Source of the DNA: Candidatus Bathyarchaeota archaeon
Lineage (GTDB): Archaea; Thermoproteota; Bathyarchaeia; 40CM-2-53-6
Length of the DNA stretch: 64,000 nt
Assembly: GCA_963833125.1 (NCBI GenBank)
Contig: CAWHWX010000004.1
Location: forward strand, 96,001 to 160,000
Direction of reading: 5' to 3'
A model generated the notes under the pieces. That model was given only the letters and a program-made list of their open reading frames with translations, ran no database searches and had not been told where the DNA came from. Shown one piece after another: positions 4,423-63,821 of the stretch. The position numbers were made by a program, and so were the translations under genes. Numbering within the stretch: position 1 is the first letter of the stretch; every line of letters starts with the position of its first letter.

Positions 4423-5300
4423 CAACTATCGTTGGCGGCACGGGGCGTATGGGGACTTGGTTCGCGGATTTTCTCTCAGCAAATGGATACGAGATCATAA
4501 TATGTGACACAAAGAAACGCCTCACCCGAAGATCGGCCAAACGCAAAGGATTCAGATTCATGACGAACGAAATCACCGCTTCCCAACTCTCTCGGCTAGT
4601 CGTTCTAGCCACGCCTACACACACGACCGTATCAATCCTCAAACTTATCGCACCGCATATATCCCGACGGACTCTTATCGTAGAAATCTCCTCGGTAAAG
4701 GAACCTATCAAGAGAACAATTACAAGCCTAGCAAAGCGCGGCTTTCAGATTCTAAGCATTCATCCCATGTTTGGCCCCGGACCGGCCAAAAACTTAGCGG
4801 GTAAAGCAATTATCATCGCACTTCAGCCGCGTGGAAGTAAATCTGCAAAGAATTTCTTGTCACTCTTTAGGAGAAGAGGAGTCGCCATGATTCCAAGCGA
4901 CCTGGGGAACCACGACCGAATTGTTGCTGCAACATTGGCCTTGCCACATTTCATGAACTTTGCATTCATCAATACTCTGAAGGATACCGGTCTGAGCCCT
5001 AACCAAGCTCGAGCCTTTGCGGGCACAACATTCAAACTCCAGCTCCTTGTAGCGGAAGAACTCTACCACGAAACACTCGAGAACGAAGTCTCAATTCTTG
5101 CCGACAACAAGTACTCAGCACAACTCTTCAAGCAATTCGCGAAACATACTAACACTATTCGAAACACAATTCACAACAGACCGCGGAGAAATTTGACCCG
5201 TAGCTTAGAGCAGGGGGCAGCCTATGTTCGGAAGGACGCCCTGTTCGGTAGGGCATACGATCGGTTTACGGCTGCTGTTGAAGCATCGAACGCCCCTTGA
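4413..5300 (+). CDS. tyrA: Prephenate/arogenate dehydrogenase
   Basis: GGTGRMG Rossmann motif, EISSVK, HPMFGP, HD...LPH. Confidence 0.9.
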   Translation: MAVATIVGGTGRMGTWFADFLSANGYEIIICDTKKRLTRRSAKRKGFRFMTNEITASQLSRLVVLATPTHTTVSILKLIAPHISRRTLIVEISSVKEPIKRTITSLAKRGFQILSIHPMFGPGPAKNLAGKAIIIALQPRGSKSAKNFLSLFRRRGVAMIPSDLGNHDRIVAATLALPHFMNFAFINTLKDTGLSPNQARAFAGTTFKLQLLVAEELYHETLENEVSILADNKYSAQLFKQFAKHTNTIRNTIHNRPRRNLTRSLEQGAAYVRKDALFGRAYDRFTAAVEASNAP

Positions 5301-5304
5301 GTCC

Positions 5305-6415
5305 TTAGAGATTCTTCTTACCTAGGGTTCGCGGGATCACGCCAGATCGAAGGCAATGATCCGCCAAAACAATCGCGACTGAAGCCTCTACGACCGGTAC
5401 GGCCTTCGGAACTATGCACGGGTCGTGGCGACCAGTAACTTGAATCGTCGTGTCCTGCATATCCTTCAAGTTTACAGTCTTCTGTTCCTTCGGAATCGAC
5501 GAAGGTGGTTTAAACCCAACACGTACAACGATAGGCATTCCATTTGACAACCCCCCAAGAATTCCACCAGCATTGTTTGTCAAGGTAACCACCTTACCGT
5601 CCTTGACCGCGTAGGAATCGTTATTCACTGACCCCGTTACTGCGGAGGCCTGAAACCCTAATCCCACTTCAAAGCCCTTGACCGCTGGAATACTGAACGC
5701 GATCTTAGCAAGGTCCGCATCTAAGCTATCGAAGAAGGGTTCGCCAATTCCAGGCGGCACTCCGTCCGCTATGCATTCGACAACACCGCCCAGGCTATCG
5801 CCTTCATTTCGAGCCTTCAAAATTGCCTCCTGCATCTTCTGGGCAACATCTGGATCAGCGCAACGAACTGAGTTCGTGTACGCATCACGTTTTATTACGT
5901 CATGCTGCAGTTGTTTGTCCATTCTTATTGAATCGACCTGCACCGTGTGTGCAAAAACCTGCACGCCAATCGCAGTTCAGGAGTTTTTTCGCGATCGCCC
6001 CCGCCATGACTATTGGGGCCGTTAGTCTTCCGCTGGCACGTCCTCCACCCCGTAGGTCGTTGAACCCGCCGTATTTGATTCTCGCGGGATAATCCGCGTG
6101 GCCTGGCCTTGCGACGTTGGCTAGTTTGTCGTAATCTTGCGACCTAACATCCTTGTTTAGCGAAAGCACCGCTACCGGAGCACCCGTTGTATACCCATCG
6201 AATAACCCGGATAGAATCTGCACCTCATCTCGCTCGCGGCGTGCGGATGTAATGCTCGGGTCGGGCGGCATTCTCCTCGCGAGTTCCTCGTTCACCTCTT
6301 CAGCGCTAAGCTTGAGTCCTGCCGGACAACCATCAATGACAGCAGCCACCCCTGGGCCATGGCTCTCTCCGAATACTGTCACGCGGAATTGCTTGCCAAA
6401 CGAACTATCACTCAA
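5305..6415 (-). CDS. aroC: Chorismate synthase (one frameshift near 5975)
   Basis: FGESHG, RPGHAD, GGRASGR in ORF 5900-6415; GDSLGG, NNAGGILGG, GRHDPC in ORF 5305-5964. Confidence 0.93.
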
Positions 6416-57459: not shown

Positions 57460-58221
57460 TTGACAACACGTAGCGTTGGTATTGTGTTTCTAACTTTGCT
57501 CGTTGGGATCGCTGTTGGCGTTATTGCGAATACTATCCCTGTTGCAGCCAATCCGTGCACTGTTCAAACTGGATCATTGATCACGGGATCATACTATAGC
57601 AACCCGAATATCGCGGTAATAGTACCAATCTCTGCGCAATGTTCGTTCACCGGCGGTCAATTGACCGTAGTAGGGAACGCCTATGAGGCAACTACGGGTT
57701 CGAACCTAGGTTCATCGAACACAATTCTACTATCGGCAGACGGTAGTAGTATCTACAAGGGTCAACTTGTCTTCACCCTCTCAACAAGTGAAGAATGGCA
57801 CACAGTACGAATTTCGATCTCCATCTATAATGAACAGACCGGATCATCGATCTTAAGCACGACTGAAACAGCTGGGGTTGATCCGAATACTAAGTACGTC
57901 AATTTCGCTAGCTGTTACACCGGTATTGCTTGTGACACGATTTACGATTATTGCCAATCACCAAACGGCAATAGCACGATGCAATGTGTCGGTTACTTGT
58001 ACCGGAACCCGAACGGATGCTTAGAACTTGTCATTCCAGTATACAGCCCTTACGGGTTCTTGTCCTACCAGTATTACACCCTACAGAACCTACCATCGTC
58101 CACACCCCCAATCGGGACATGGGCGATCACGACTGGACAAATGCACATAGGCTACAATTCCGCCCCGAACGGAGCCGCCTGCCCAGGCAACTACATCACG
58201 GTAAACTCATTATCTCCATAG
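57460..58221 (+). CDS. Secreted Cys-containing protein
   Basis: Signal peptide; paired Cys; C-terminal GYL...GC.EL...YY.L.NL...C.G module. Confidence 0.7.
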   Translation: MTTRSVGIVFLTLLVGIAVGVIANTIPVAANPCTVQTGSLITGSYYSNPNIAVIVPISAQCSFTGGQLTVVGNAYEATTGSNLGSSNTILLSADGSSIYKGQLVFTLSTSEEWHTVRISISIYNEQTGSSILSTTETAGVDPNTKYVNFASCYTGIACDTIYDYCQSPNGNSTMQCVGYLYRNPNGCLELVIPVYSPYGFLSYQYYTLQNLPSSTPPIGTWAITTGQMHIGYNSAPNGAACPGNYITVNSLSP

Positions 58222-58315: not shown

Positions 58316-59662
58316 CTAGTTCTTTCCCAAGGAACACAATGGATCCCAAAAAGACAAAACTACGGGCTCGGCATCGAGGATCTTCAGCAATTCTTGGGAC
58401 AGGTACTCTTTCCTGACAACAACTTCATAGAGATATTGATCAAACCACTCATCCATCATATACATGAATCCTTGATCCCCAATGGCGGCTCCCCAACTGT
58501 TTTCAACTCGCCACTTTCTCGGTTTGCCTTGCTCATCGAGGTCAACCCCAGTAAGCACCATGGCGTGGGTCATTTCACTATCTTCATAATCCAATCTGGC
58601 AGCTTTATCGAGTAGGAATTGCGTGCCGTAGACTGATTCGTAGTCGTATATGCTCAGATCCATTGCCCCCATGTCCGTCTGAAGCATCTTGGTCACGTCG
58701 CAACCGAACCATACCGCACGATTTCCTTTGATCATGTCTATGGTTGCCTTCTTCATGGTCTCCAAGTCGACGTTTAGATAGCGGGTATCTTGTCCGCCGA
58801 CCACATTACCGACATATTGGACAGTGTACATTTTGTTGAACGGTTTGTTGGGAGCATTGATCAGGGTCACGAAATCATCAAGCGCTATCCCGATGTACTC
58901 GTTGTAAAACTGAACTGGTGTGATGTTCCCCCTTCTGTGGAACAAGCCGTCTTTGTCACGCCACTCCCAGTCAAACGTCTCTTGAGGAACACCCAGGTTG
59001 ATGCACAGCATCTTGTAGAATTCATCCATGAACTCACCCTTCTTCTCCCTTAGCTCCGACTCGGAGGCTCCACTCTCATTCATTTCACGCAGTACCTTAG
59101 CGTATTCTCTTAGTTTCGAGGCGAGTAGAGCGTTCATGGGGTCGGAATTATTGCTGTTGGCCGTTTCTGGCATGAACGTCTTTGGTATGACGCCGTATTT
59201 CCTTATGAGATTCACAAACATATTCCACTCGCCACCGTCTGACGTTGGATCGGAAAGAAGCGAATTGACCAACCTGCCGTCCAGGGGCTCTTCCTTTGTT
59301 TCAATAATGGTTTCTAAGAAGTAGTTGGCTTTCTCTAGTTTGTCCCAAAACATTTGGTATATTTCAGAGAGCTCAAATGTCTTCAGGTTCAACTTTTTCA
59401 TGGCTTCAAGAGAGAGCACGCTCAGCCCCGAGAAAAGCCAGCATCTCCCCGATCTTTCTTGGTTGGCCGCATCTGGGGATTCGATAAGATTACTGAAGGT
59501 GAAGTTTTGCCTATCTACCTCCTTTCTACTCAAAGCTACTGCGGCTATTCCATTCTCTGTAACGGCGTTCAAGGCAAGTGTGTTTCTTGGGTTCCTGTCG
59601 AATGCTCGCGAGAAGCGTCTTATGTCATCAAAACTCAACCCTTTTTCCAAGAGCGTTTCCAA
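58316..59662 (-). CDS. pepC: Aminopeptidase C / bleomycin hydrolase (C1B)
   Basis: NQERSGRCWLF, DKLEKAN, DGGEW, WFGCD, THAM, VENSWG. Confidence 0.95.
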   Translation of the reverse strand: METLLEKGLSFDDIRRFSRAFDRNPRNTLALNAVTENGIAAVALSRKEVDRQNFTFSNLIESPDAANQERSGRCWLFSGLSVLSLEAMKKLNLKTFELSEIYQMFWDKLEKANYFLETIIETKEEPLDGRLVNSLLSDPTSDGGEWNMFVNLIRKYGVIPKTFMPETANSNNSDPMNALLASKLREYAKVLREMNESGASESELREKKGEFMDEFYKMLCINLGVPQETFDWEWRDKDGLFHRRGNITPVQFYNEYIGIALDDFVTLINAPNKPFNKMYTVQYVGNVVGGQDTRYLNVDLETMKKATIDMIKGNRAVWFGCDVTKMLQTDMGAMDLSIYDYESVYGTQFLLDKAARLDYEDSEMTHAMVLTGVDLDEQGKPRKWRVENSWGAAIGDQGFMYMMDEWFDQYLYEVVVRKEYLSQELLKILDAEPVVLSFWDPLCSLGKN

Positions 59663-60787: not shown

Positions 60788-60840
60788 GGGAAAAAGAAGA
60801 GACGGCTCTCTTAGGAAGGCGCGAAAGTACGCCTAGAGAG
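60788..60840 (-). terminator. Hairpin plus pyrimidine/T-rich terminator after the YQP gene
   Basis: CTCTCTAGG...CCTAAGAGAG stem followed by TCTCTTCTTTTTCCC on the minus strand. Confidence 0.55.
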
Positions 60841-60843
60841 GTG

Positions 60844-61041
60844 TCACTGGACCCTGTACGCTTGCGGTTGATAGGAGTAGTACTGGGCAGGTGGCTGATA
60901 TGAGTAATACTGCGTAGCTGGCTGATAGTAGGACTGCATGGGTGCTTGATAGTAGCACATCTCAGTGGGTGGTTGATAGTACTGGGCAGGAGGTTGATAG
61001 TAGTAGTATTGGGCTGCTGGCTGATAAAATGACATTGACAT
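60844..61041 (-). CDS. 65-aa Tyr/Gln/Pro tandem-repeat protein
   Basis: MSMSFYQPAAQYYYYQPPAQYYQPPTEMCYYQAPMQSYYQPATQYYSYQPPAQYYSYQPQAYRVQ; GGAGG SD at 61053-61057. Confidence 0.8.
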   Translation of the reverse strand: MSMSFYQPAAQYYYYQPPAQYYQPPTEMCYYQAPMQSYYQPATQYYSYQPPAQYYSYQPQAYRVQ

Positions 61042-61058
61042 TCTTGTTTTCGCCTCCT

Positions 61059-61379
61059 TCAATTTTCGTTAAGCGCTTGCGGCTTCGTGTTGGTTTCTTC
61101 ATGCTTGCCGTGCGAGAATATGCTCCGTAGTTTTGACGTAATTCTCTGCGAAACCGAACCACTTTGAAAACGTGTCTTCTCGTACTCCGTGACCTCGCCC
61201 GTCCCGGATACGGTGACGTTGGCGTATTGGGTTCCGTTCGTTTCTTTTGTCTGTGTTTCCATTACCCAGATGTCTTGCCGTTGTGCAGATTTGATTTCCG
61301 TTTGTGCGCCTAATTCCTTTGTTTTTACATATTCGAGAGCGATTCGCTTTGCTTCAGTTTCATCGATCATTTTTTCCAT
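61059..61379 (-). CDS. PepSY-like domain protein
   Basis: IDETEAKRIALEYV...WVME...VTVS.TGEV PepSY pattern; no signal peptide. Confidence 0.7.
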   Translation of the reverse strand: MEKMIDETEAKRIALEYVKTKELGAQTEIKSAQRQDIWVMETQTKETNGTQYANVTVSGTGEVTEYEKTRFQSGSVSQRITSKLRSIFSHGKHEETNTKPQALNEN

Positions 61380-61400
61380 GACTGTTTCCCCGTACCTAAC

Positions 61401-61520
61401 TTAGATGTTACGTATACGCTCCGTCAGTTTCTCGAATTTACTCTGCTTCTTAGTAGAGAAATGCGTTTTCAGTTTTTCAAATCTACTCTTTTCTGTACCG
61501 AAATACTTGCTTAGTTTCAT
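61401..61520 (-). CDS. 39-aa basic repeat peptide
   Basis: MKLSKYFGTEKSRFEKLKTHFSTKKQSKFEKLTERIRNI; TTTATAT box 34 nt upstream. Confidence 0.7.
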   Translation of the reverse strand: MKLSKYFGTEKSRFEKLKTHFSTKKQSKFEKLTERIRNI

Positions 61521-61725
61521 ATCGATCTACAATAGATCATAGTCGTTTTGCGGATATAAAGCTATGTATATATATTGTTAAATGTACACGACGCCAGTTA
61601 CGCCGGAATAGGGCAAACGCAGTGTGCTAAAATCTAGAGTTATCGAGTGTTGACGGTGCGACCGCCTTTCGAAGATTAGAGTGTCGACTCTGAAAACAGA
61701 GGCGAGAAACACAAAGGGAGGGAAC

Positions 61726-61893
61726 TCAGATCGCTTTCATGATCTCTTTGATATGCTGTTTAGCGCTGTCCTTGATTTCCTGGAATTCCTGGTTCTTGCC
61801 AAATTCTCCAAGACTTCGTTCAACCATCTCGAAGAGTTTGTCGATATCTTGCAGAAGCCCTGTGAGTTCTCCACGAATCTTTCCTGTGTCCAA
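61726..61893 (-). CDS. 55-aa helical-hairpin microprotein
   Basis: MDTGKIRGELTGLLQDIDKLFEMVERSLGEFGKNQEFQEIKDSAKQHIKEIMKAI; TTATTAAG box ~30 nt upstream; pyrimidine run downstream. Confidence 0.65.
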   Translation of the reverse strand: MDTGKIRGELTGLLQDIDKLFEMVERSLGEFGKNQEFQEIKDSAKQHIKEIMKAI

Positions 61894-62035: not shown

Positions 62036-63821
62036 ATGACCTACAAGCCTAGAGACTACGGGATTGAGCACTCATTACTGGAGTGGGTAGCTGCTGTTGC
62101 GAAGATAACTAGACCAGACAACATAGCGTGGTGTGATGGATCTGATGAAGAATTTCAATCTCTCATCAAACTGATGATCGTAGACGGGACACTGATCGAG
62201 CTTAACCAAGAAAAATATCCAAACTGCTATCTGCACAGGAGCAACCCGAACGATGTCGCCAGAACCGAAGAAGCGACCTTCATCTGCACAATGAACAGAG
62301 ATGATGTGGGTCCCACGAATAATTGGATGCCTTCTGATGAAGGTGAAGCAAAGTTACTGAGGCTTTTTGATAATTGCATGATAGGACGAACGATGTATGT
62401 TATCCCATACCTGCTTGGACCTGCAGGTTCGACTTATTCTCAGGTCGGAATTGAGCTGACTGATAGTCGCTATGTCGCTGTGAATATGGAAATCATGACG
62501 AAAGTCGGCAAGGTTGCGCTAGAGCACATGAAGGACGGCGAATTTGTGAAGGGCATCCATTCAACCGGCCAGTTGGACCCCAATAGAAGGTACATTTGCC
62601 ATTTCCCAGATAAGAAGCTCATAATGAGTTTGAACTCGAATTATGGAGGAAACGCCCTTCTCAGCAAGAAATGCCATGCCCTTAGGCTCGCGAGCGTATT
62701 GGCGAGAGATGGAGGATGGCTGGCCGAGCACATGCTGATTATAGGGGTAGAAGACCAAGAGGGCACTGTAACTTATGTGACCGGGGCGTTCCCCAGCGCC
62801 AGCGGTAAAACTAACCTTGCCATGCTCAGGCCGCCAGAATACATGAAGGACTGGAAAGTCTGGGCGGTCAGCGACGACATAGCTTGGATTCATCTAGACT
62901 CCCAAGGCAGATTCAGAGCAATCAACCCCGAGAGTGGATTGTTCGCGGTGGCTCCCAATACTAACATCAAGACCAACCCCGAAATAATGGAAACTGTCAG
63001 AAAGAACACTATATTCACGAATGTCGCCTTGGCAATGGATAGAACTCCTTGGTGGGAAGGCATGGGCGACCATCCCAGAAAACTTTGGGACTGGCAAGGA
63101 AAAGTTTGGACAGCCGGCAAGGGACCCGCTGCCCACCCAAATTCAAGGTTCACAACTTCAATCAATCAATACCGATTCCTATCCCCCGAGTACACTAATC
63201 CGAATGGTGTTCCAATCTCGGCCATAATTTTCGGAGGAAGAAGATCTGACCTTGTTCCGTTAGTTTACGAATCATTCAGCTGGGAACACGGCGTTTTGAT
63301 GGGCGCAATGCTTAGAGTGGAAACTACGGCCGCCGGCTGCAGGGGAGGTTGGAGTTCTAAGATACGATCCCATGGCGATGAAACCATTCTGCGGATATCA
63401 CATTGCCGATTACTTCAGACACTGGCTCTCATTCCGATCAAGAAGCGAAAACCTCCCGAGAATATTCCAGATAAATGCATTCAGAATGGGAAAAGATGGA
63501 AGATTCCTCTGGCCCGGTTACGGTCACAACCTCGTCGTTCTCAAATGGATTATTGACAGATGTAAAGGCAGGGCTGATGCAATAGAAACCCCCATAGGCT
63601 ACGTTCCGACGCCTGAGTCACTCAACTTGACCGGGGTGAATCTACCGGGATGCACAATCGAAGATTTGCTTCGAGTCGATAAAACAGCGTGGATGGACGA
63701 AATCGAATCCTCTTGGTTATTCTTCAAAACCCTCGGAGAACAATTTCCTGAAACATTGTACCAGGAGCTTTCGAAACTGAGAGATAGACTACAAAATCCG
63801 AGCTCCTCACCACACCAATAA
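62036..63821 (+). CDS. pckG: GTP-dependent phosphoenolpyruvate carboxykinase (frameshift near 63335)
   Basis: DVARTE, YGGNALLSKKC, WLAEHM, FPSASGKTNLAM, DDIAW, HPNSRF, DPMAMKPFCGY. Confidence 0.95.

Follow-up and report, generated by a model that had tools for sequence, protein, structure and literature searches.

Do three very small genes lying one behind the other on the minus strand of a Bathyarchaeia genome form a functional unit, and what could such a unit do? Hardly any work has been devoted to the small and the low-complexity proteins of uncultured archaea, and the locus analysed here offers a concrete case. It lies in a stretch of 64,000 nucleotides, hereafter called the window, from Candidatus Bathyarchaeota archaeon (GenBank assembly GCA_963833125.1, contig CAWHWX010000004.1, abbreviated C4, positions 96001-160000). 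The assembly, designated G000, is a metagenome-assembled genome (MAG) of 3.07 Mb with a completeness of 87.8% and a contamination of 7.0%. The three genes encode a 39-residue peptide (pep39), a 106-residue protein (p106) and a tyrosine-rich repeat protein (YQP). We found that they are arranged as an operon, in which the first two genes form the conserved core. We tentatively read it as an operon of a stress cohort in which the helical peptide and the C-terminal tail of p106 share a target, while the prion-like YQP self-associates.

The original prediction described three minus-strand open reading frames (ORFs) of 39, 106 and 65 amino acids separated by 21 and 17 nt, and the ORF list of the window returned precisely this arrangement, with pep39 at 61401-61520, p106 at 61059-61379 and YQP, counted from its ATG, at 60844-61041. 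The purine-rich Shine-Dalgarno (SD) sites that it noted are present before both internal genes. An SD-type GGGG (61388-61391) precedes the ATG of p106 by 8 nt, and a GGAGG on the minus strand (61053-61057) precedes that of YQP by 11 nt. The 3' end of the 16S rRNA in this genome bears the matching CCTCC, and GGAGG within 20 nt upstream is rare in the genome, occurring at 81 of 2253 long ORFs. The SD context of YQP, GAAGGAGGCGAAA(A)CAAGAATG, is kept across YQP loci, including that of a related genome, G013. After the YQP stop codon, the expected terminator follows as a hairpin and a T-run (60788-60845, minus strand), with a minimum free energy of -19.4 kcal/mol (z = -4.19) that none of 200 shuffled sequences reached. 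It is kept in all eight YQP loci and accompanies YQP in G013 as well; the eight sequences share 11 conserved pairs and show no compensatory changes.

All three frames are real genes under purifying selection, and the frame conservation on which the prediction hinged was thus borne out. The ratio of non-synonymous to synonymous differences per site (pN/pS) was 0.11-0.49 in the peptide gene and 0.20-0.39 in the gene for p106. YQP gave 0.24 in the coding frame, compared with 1.5 and 1.9 when read in either alternative frame. Peat metatranscriptomes yielded matching RNA contigs in four runs of one study, which derive from relatives because they are 90-96% alike. One contig of 564 nt from such a relative spans 60896-61458 and thereby parts of all three genes; that it represents a single molecule cannot be proven. 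In two runs the RNA contigs stop at 61492 and 61493 with no loose ends, so that pep39 is covered up to 61493; YQP is covered over 60896-61041. No RNA contig was found over 61539-61715, below 60896, over p67 or over the start of the neighbouring phosphoenolpyruvate carboxykinase (PEPCK) gene, which we did not use, since contigs cannot show absence. The promoter block described below, the internal SD sites, the terminator and the RNA-library contig across the three genes identify the trio as an operon.

How constant is this unit? We assembled 36 loci, comprising the two copies in G000, six from species genomes and 28 from metagenomes. Near-copies are frequent among them, so that the distinct loci number about 16 of type A and about 7 of type B. 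These types correspond to two subfamilies of p106. Subfamily B is marked by an SW(A/P) insert and was recovered as a group with 100/99 support in a tree of 20 of the 36 loci, built after exclusion of near-copies and of truncated and frameshifted rows. L045 and L043, in which a frameshift and an internal stop were seen, were reassigned to B. In all 23 assessable A loci the peptide gene immediately precedes p106, with a gap of 12-29 nt, and it does so in none of the 11 assessable B loci. YQP directly follows p106 in 9 of the 19 A loci with at least 250 nt of downstream sequence. The flanking genes vary between loci, and no modifying enzyme is conserved beside YQP. Because of the contrast between 23/23 and 9/19, and because G013 has YQP without the pair, we regard peptide and p106 as the conserved core and YQP as a separable module. 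The unit is therefore self-contained, as had been proposed, with respect to its own promoter, SD sites and terminator, whereas the trio is not obligate. Synteny bore out the pairing of peptide and p106 in A loci, but not in the B loci, and the link to YQP in some A loci only.

The 106-residue family is almost confined to a single genus. We found p106 in 6 of 41 related genomes, all of that genus, and a class-wide scan of 301 genomes gave strong matches there only; the related genomes are peat and soil MAGs. Six further genomes of the class gave weak matches (E 4e-5 to 7e-4) to a different family of 75-90 residues, for which there was no Pfam match. The second cassette of G000 sits on contig C10. 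Regions present twice in G000 at about 85-95% identity (C4/C10, C12/C17 and C17/C34) comprise the cassette, a YYQPP gene beside a TiaS-like gene, and a MRTIKVPVVEYP... ORF. Given these duplicated regions, the 7% contamination and a size above that of its relatives, G000 is probably a mix of two related strains. The cassette on C10 may accordingly derive from a co-binned related strain and not be a paralogue.

The first element of the operon is a promoter/leader block of about 62 nt (61521-61583, minus strand), running from TTAACAATATATATACATA through the predicted TTTATAT box, present at 61554-61560, to the peptide ATG. Its layout is TTAAC, an AT-rich stretch, AACCTTATA[AT], CAACTATG, GAATTGAT and ATG. 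In 18 aligned loci the block has sharp borders and hardly varies, whereas synonymous sites diverge by 5-51% between loci (pS 0.045-0.51). TTTATAT has no second copy on either strand of the window; shuffled sequences contained 5.0 +/- 2.1. From the usual archaeal distance between TATA box and start, transcription of pep39 is predicted to begin about 10 nt before the peptide ATG, leaving a short leader without an SD site. The palindrome GATCTA-N3-TAGATC, which had been placed at the likely transcription start, does exist (61524-61538, no strand assigned). We take it as chance because 19 palindromes of the 6-N3-6 form occur in the window versus 15.6 expected, and because the remaining 17 aligned loci lack its left arm and read GATGCC or other letters in that place.

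TA-rich heptamers are strongly depleted in the window as a whole, where TTTATAT occurs once in the 128 kb of both strands. Since this motif is so rare, near-consensus TATA boxes may mark a few strong promoters in the genome.

A profile of the block, searched with nhmmer, matched the two G000 cassettes with E values of 1e-15 to 3e-18 and found only five sites in that genome. Besides the cassettes, they lie before genes for an 84-residue membrane protein and a 51-residue DUF5670 membrane peptide and, weakly, before a 22-residue hydrophobic ORF. The same layout precedes a BON-domain gene in other loci. Neighbours across the loci include genes for Hsp20, CsbD, BON, ice-binding-like, AhpC/TSA, M48 peptidase, thermosome and ribbon-helix-helix (RHH)-like small proteins. 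The recurrence of the block before BON-domain and small membrane-protein genes suggests a stress-type cohort. We infer that the operon is most likely a member of a cohort of small-protein genes with one distinctive promoter/leader module, a stress-type regulon, and that its function is probably stress-related.

Just past the end of the window, an island of small genes at C4:166000-175000 of G000 bears the promoter module three times. It also contains two RHH-like genes, a Tyr/Gly-rich ORF and genes for small membrane proteins, with the RHH proteins as candidates for the regulation of the module. The subfamily-B p106 genes of L016, L017, L029, L032 and L033 are preceded by a different conserved block, peculiar to this subfamily, which terminates in CTTGTAGAGGCAAC-ATG and has CTTGTAGA in common with the A-type leader. 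The pattern of CTTGTAGA looks as if the peptide gene had been gained or lost between leader and p106.

The peptide pep39 is rich in lysine and arginine (12 Lys and Arg, 4 Glu among 39 residues). It is built of units of 13-14 residues, KLxxxFxxxKSRFE, with a heptad-like spacing of the hydrophobic residues. Its relatives, 22-40 residues long, share the architecture MKL, one to three such units and RIRDI. An alignment of 17 peptides contains 7 invariant and 10 nearly invariant positions among 40 columns. The motif KL-x3-F[SG] had been proposed to be common to the peptide and the tail of p106, and it falls in conserved positions of both alignments. It occurs three times in the 145 residues of pep39 and p106, compared with 27 times in 796,045 residues of long ORFs (3.4e-5 per residue), an enrichment of about 600-fold; the stricter KL[KR]xxF[SG] occurs once in the same background. 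In both proteins, the amphipathicity of these segments is argued from residue positions.

Homologues of p106 form 70 clusters in 5.8 billion proteins, all of at least 65% identity. They are unnamed or annotated as hypothetical, bar one (P0039) with the JGI label 'Txe/YoeB'. Among 1.84 billion clusters at 50% identity, nine representatives were found, and an Atlas search with the homologue P0002 returned its own cluster alone, with scores of at most 0.82. The protein comprises a PepSY-like domain (residues 1-72), a basic amphipathic C-terminal helix (about residues 76-92) and 14 disordered residues at the end. Its conserved tail, SKLRSIFSR, contains the peptide motif as KLRSIFS. The N-terminus, MEKMIDETEAKR, is hydrophilic, and there is neither a hydrophobic segment nor a signal peptide. 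As it lacks a signal peptide and a membrane anchor, p106 is presumably cytosolic. The relative P0076 has a hydrophobic C-terminus of four segments in place of the tail, which would agree with the membrane as a target of the tail.

The second protein had been called PepSY-like, and the structural model is consistent with this description as far as the fold is concerned. An AlphaFold2 model built from 34 of the 70 homologues (predicted local distance difference test score, pLDDT, 71.6) contains a helix (7-21), four strands (27-34, 37-46, 49-58 and 63-70) and a separate tail helix (83-90). The N-terminal helix is predicted to pack on a four-stranded antiparallel sheet, as in the PepSY fold. The top match of the model in VIA-align was a designed cystatin fold (Z 10.0). 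Natural chains followed with 4exr and a VirB8-like domain (both Z 7.6), YpeB 5boi (7.3, root-mean-square deviation 1.8 over 63 residues), YpmB 2gu3 (6.3), the peptidase propeptides 3nqz and 4k90 (6.2) and UipA (5.5). In the model, p106 thus has a PepSY-like fold, closest to PepSY structures.

Curated family models gave a different answer. No PepSY-type model of Pfam matches p106 above its cut-off, the best score being 14.1 bits for YPEB_PepSY1-2 against a cut-off of 31.7, and profile searches of the PDB with p106 gave no PepSY match. Matches below the cut-offs among 34 members were to DUF6294 (25), DUF4901 (17), YPEB_PepSY1-2 (16) and PepSY (3). A PF03413 search of G000 found nothing at E <= 0.001. 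An 84-residue protein of the same genus (L048:1492-1743) does pass PF03413, with 26 bits against a cut-off of 24, and aligns end to end with p106. Profile comparison of this protein by hhalign gave a probability of 81.7% (E 1.1e-5, 44 columns) with an alignment of 19 diverse p106 members and 52.8% with a narrower one. We therefore consider p106 probably a distant relative of PepSY that falls outside the family when judged by the curated cut-offs; the absence of an export signal likewise separates it from the identity first proposed.

Two other ideas about these genes were rejected. For a split type IV pilin (PilA-N/PilA-C), a match to Geopilin domain 2 reached E 0.13 only and was lost with a broader profile, and the peptide is highly charged, not hydrophobic as a split-pilin partner. 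Apparent TAG recoding, seen as matches with stops inside, came from alignments extending past the natural stop, and was dismissed because the ORFs are intact. Elsewhere, in L031:1596-2630, an ORF for a KaiC-type ATPase (187.6 bits in Pfam) continues in frame, with no stop, into a subfamily-B p106, which could be a fusion or merely an adjacent in-frame pair.

The third product, YQP, has by composition the character of a self-associating low-complexity protein. A hand count gave 18 Tyr, 14 Gln, 10 Pro and no Asn among its 65 residues (28% Tyr), so that by composition alone it classifies as Gln-rich and aromatic low-complexity sequence. Its repeat units measure 8-9 residues, with DNA periods of 27 and 24 nt. 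Orthologues range from 65 to 118 residues, and from 65 to 99 beside A-type p106, through changes in repeat number between conserved termini (N-terminal MxMSYYQP and C-terminal YSYQPQAYRVQ). A protein homologue search returned three candidates, none at E <= 0.01, probably an effect of low complexity and not evidence of absence. According to Zajkowski et al. (bioRxiv 10.1101/2020.07.20.212902), those archaeal prion-like domains for which amyloid was observed combine Pro-Gln with nearby Tyr or Phe and a higher Tyr content. Because YQP matches this pattern with its Pro-Gln and adjacent Tyr, we call it prion-like.

Tyrosine-rich ORFs of at least four unrelated kinds accompany 14 of 24 A loci versus 1 of 12 B loci, and genome-wide there are only eight in the 3.07 Mb. 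A wider family of the type MSYYYVPRPP...YQPP...AVRV adjoins a different conserved gene in several genera. Other small ORF families with 20-42% Tyr occur in G000 at C1:305521-305844, C4:168652-168834, C17:8117-8230 and C34:78277-78390, and elsewhere at L018:5457-5726, L015:3317-3586 and L022:2014-2223. Among these small Tyr-rich families, one keeps RGExxVGNCLMICQ at its C-terminus, and one that is rich in Tyr and Gly has YGYPYYW as its last residues and frequently lies divergently upstream of the cassette.

How might the three products work together? In the reading that we tentatively favour, a short-leader mRNA from the near-consensus TATA promoter encodes peptide, p106 and YQP and ends with the hairpin and T-run. 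The helices of the peptide and of the p106 tail would bind one another or attach to a common target, either the inner membrane face or Tyr-rich partners, and peptide and p106 would act as an obligate pair. Through its tyrosines, YQP may self-associate into a condensate or an amyloid-like assembly, which the Lys/Arg-rich pair would modulate or localise; PMC10888811 names Tyr-Arg contacts as drivers of condensates. The operon would regulate no protease.

Several observations weigh against this proposal. Locus counts overstate independence, given the relatedness of the loci and the many near-copies among them. The RNA contigs belong to relatives and were obtained in a single study; they cannot prove one transcript, and carry-over of DNA is possible. 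The profiles of peptide and p106 tail do not match significantly in hhalign (E 0.047, probability 1%), and the shared motif may hence be convergence. The Z values of the modelled fold are middling (at most 7.6 for natural chains), VirB8/NTF2-like chains tie with PepSY, and Foldseek found nothing at E <= 0.001 with the p106 model. YQP and the peptide gene also occur outside the operon. The 100% complete genome G013 has a 118-residue YQP orthologue behind a 72-residue zinc-ribbon ORF, and our search of it found no p106 and no peptide; G004 carries an orphan peptide gene, which retains promoter and frame. In L034 and L036, Tyr-rich ORFs are missing from the surrounding 3 kb. Finally, the stress label derives solely from neighbours and promoter likeness.

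These separate occurrences would be accounted for if the three products and the neighbouring small protein p55 were co-regulated but independent stress protectants, hydrophilin-like or membrane-protecting, without physical interaction, and if their adjacency reflected shared regulation in a variable island of small genes. That the B-type p106 stands alone in 11 loci, that flanking genes vary, that the promoter module drives unrelated small genes, and that the neighbours are of stress type all agree with independence, as do YQP without the pair and the solitary peptide of G004. However, co-regulation does not need the linkage of peptide and A-type p106 in 23 of 23 loci at 12-29 nt, and the motif common to peptide and p106 tail argues for a shared partner. 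We regard independent protection as only slightly less likely than the favoured reading. A more ambitious form of the cooperative reading appears unlikely to us, namely a dedicated archaeal system for the controlled self-assembly of free-standing prion-like proteins. Here the Lys/Arg-rich coiled peptide and the cytosolic p106 would jointly nucleate Tyr-rich low-complexity proteins, chaperone them or anchor them to the membrane. These proteins, comprising YQP and the other Tyr-rich families beside the pair, would form a protective condensate or amyloid-like layer in times of stress.

Could the peptide be dispensable as a product? As the first cistron behind a short leader, 21 nt before p106, its ORF might be mainly a regulatory upstream ORF controlling p106 and perhaps YQP, with a functionless peptide. 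Its variable number of repeats (one to three) and the existence of subfamily B without it would fit such a role. A merely regulatory ORF would not call for purifying selection at the amino acid level, with pN/pS of 0.11-0.49 and 17 conserved columns of 40 (7 invariant, 10 nearly so). Nor would it explain why the motif recurs in the p106 tail and why the orphan copy retains promoter and frame, and we consider this alternative improbable.

Still less can be said for the model first put forward, in which a PepSY-like protein controls proteolysis by inhibiting or maturing a peptidase such as pepC, and YQP is a processed precursor. The gene pepC (58316-59662, minus strand) does lie 1181 nt downstream of the operon on the same strand, in agreement with the predicted 1.2 kb, and it is also nearby in L014 and L025. 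The fold of p106 is nearest to PepSY, including the propeptides 3nqz and 4k90. Yet pepC encodes a cytoplasmic C1-family aminopeptidase, two other genes separate it from the operon, and it is absent from 1.5 kb downstream of L007, 3 kb downstream of L022 and 4 kb on each side of L018. PepSY propeptides are tied to peptidases of the M4/M36 class, not C1, and no M4/M36 peptidase was found among the neighbours scanned. As p106 lacks a signal peptide and stays below the cut-off of every PepSY model, and as no modifying enzyme is conserved by YQP, we hold control of proteolysis to be very unlikely. A toxin-antitoxin-like or mobile selfish module, which the JGI name of P0039, the small gene pair, the variable context and the nearby RHH-like genes might suggest, is just as improbable, since the YoeB_toxin model touches 2 of 34 members (best E 0.013), PADLOC and PHROGs gave no match, a scan of seven loci and 14 kb of the window detected no integrase or tRNA gene, and the p106 model, a helix with a four-strand roll, has its best natural matches among PepSY domains.

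As the original prediction held, no described system of this layout came to light. Pfam, NCBIfam, PADLOC (searched with five proteins) and PHROGs yielded none, Rfam gave no match, and literature searches on Tyr-rich archaeal small proteins and Bathyarchaeia peat metatranscriptomes turned up no account of the module, supplements aside. Partial likenesses exist nevertheless. PepSY proteins are typically extracytoplasmic and have a peptidase or membrane partner. With PF03413, YpeB, YpmB and the M4/M36 propeptides, modelled p106 shares the helix on a four-stranded antiparallel sheet. In contrast to them, it scores below the cut-offs, lacks signal peptide, anchor and peptidase partner, has an additional conserved basic amphipathic tail and is paired with a repeat peptide. 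The small proteins of bacterial general-stress regulons (CsbD, BON/OsmY and small membrane proteins) offer a second parallel, as the cohort here similarly places small hydrophilic and membrane proteins under one promoter type. The promoter here is of the archaeal TATA type, and RHH-like genes are the only lead to a regulator.

For YQP, the Bacillus subtilis spore-coat proteins CotC and CotU may be compared, which are small, contain about 30% Tyr and short repeats, and are thought to assemble and cross-link. They resemble YQP by description only and are Lys/Asp-rich, bacterial and specific to sporulation. The oligopeptide repeats of yeast Sup35 are low-complexity sequences of Gln, Tyr and Pro in short tandem repeats. 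Short tandem Gln/Pro/Tyr repeats also link YQP to the candidate archaeal prion domains of bioRxiv 10.1101/2020.07.20.212902. Unlike prion-like domains, YQP is a free-standing protein of 65-118 residues that is not joined to a functional domain. It lacks Asn and consists of Tyr to 28%, and its gene, equipped with a separate SD site and a terminator, is part of an operon. The case thus provides a conserved and selected free-standing prion-like protein, represented in RNA libraries and accompanied by two conserved partner genes, and the promoter module links it to further small-protein genes. If the partners control YQP assembly, the operon would offer a simple prokaryotic model of regulated condensate or amyloid formation. 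If they do not, it still adds a new cytosolic branch to the PepSY-like proteins and supplies a promoter signature by which a stress-type cohort can be traced in peat Bathyarchaeia.

Upstream of the operon and outside it, p55 (61726-61893, minus strand) is a conserved, helical-looking small protein of 55 residues with its own transcript, and a neighbour that recurs often. Its homologues form 33 clusters, all from Bathyarchaeia or unnamed, with pN/pS of 0.05-0.20, and one RNA contig covers 61720-61884. In L007, L014 and L021 the p55 gene precedes the cassette and shares its strand, whereas in L034 and L036 it is convergent and lies downstream. Beyond p55, a PEPCK gene of the GTP type (62036-63821, plus strand) is split into ORFs of 506 and 149 residues by a one-base frameshift around GCCGCCGGCTGC, with the break near 63330-63340, which could be an assembly error or mark a pseudogene. 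A lineage-specific, apparently secreted family (...VPVS..C.F.GGQL...) with no Pfam match recurs near the cassettes, at 57460-58221 (plus strand) of the window, L022:135-947, L034:1678-2592 and 4702-5682, and in G000 at C4:167222-168100 and C34:27245-27953. One copy of this family extends into a very Tyr-rich C-terminal stretch.

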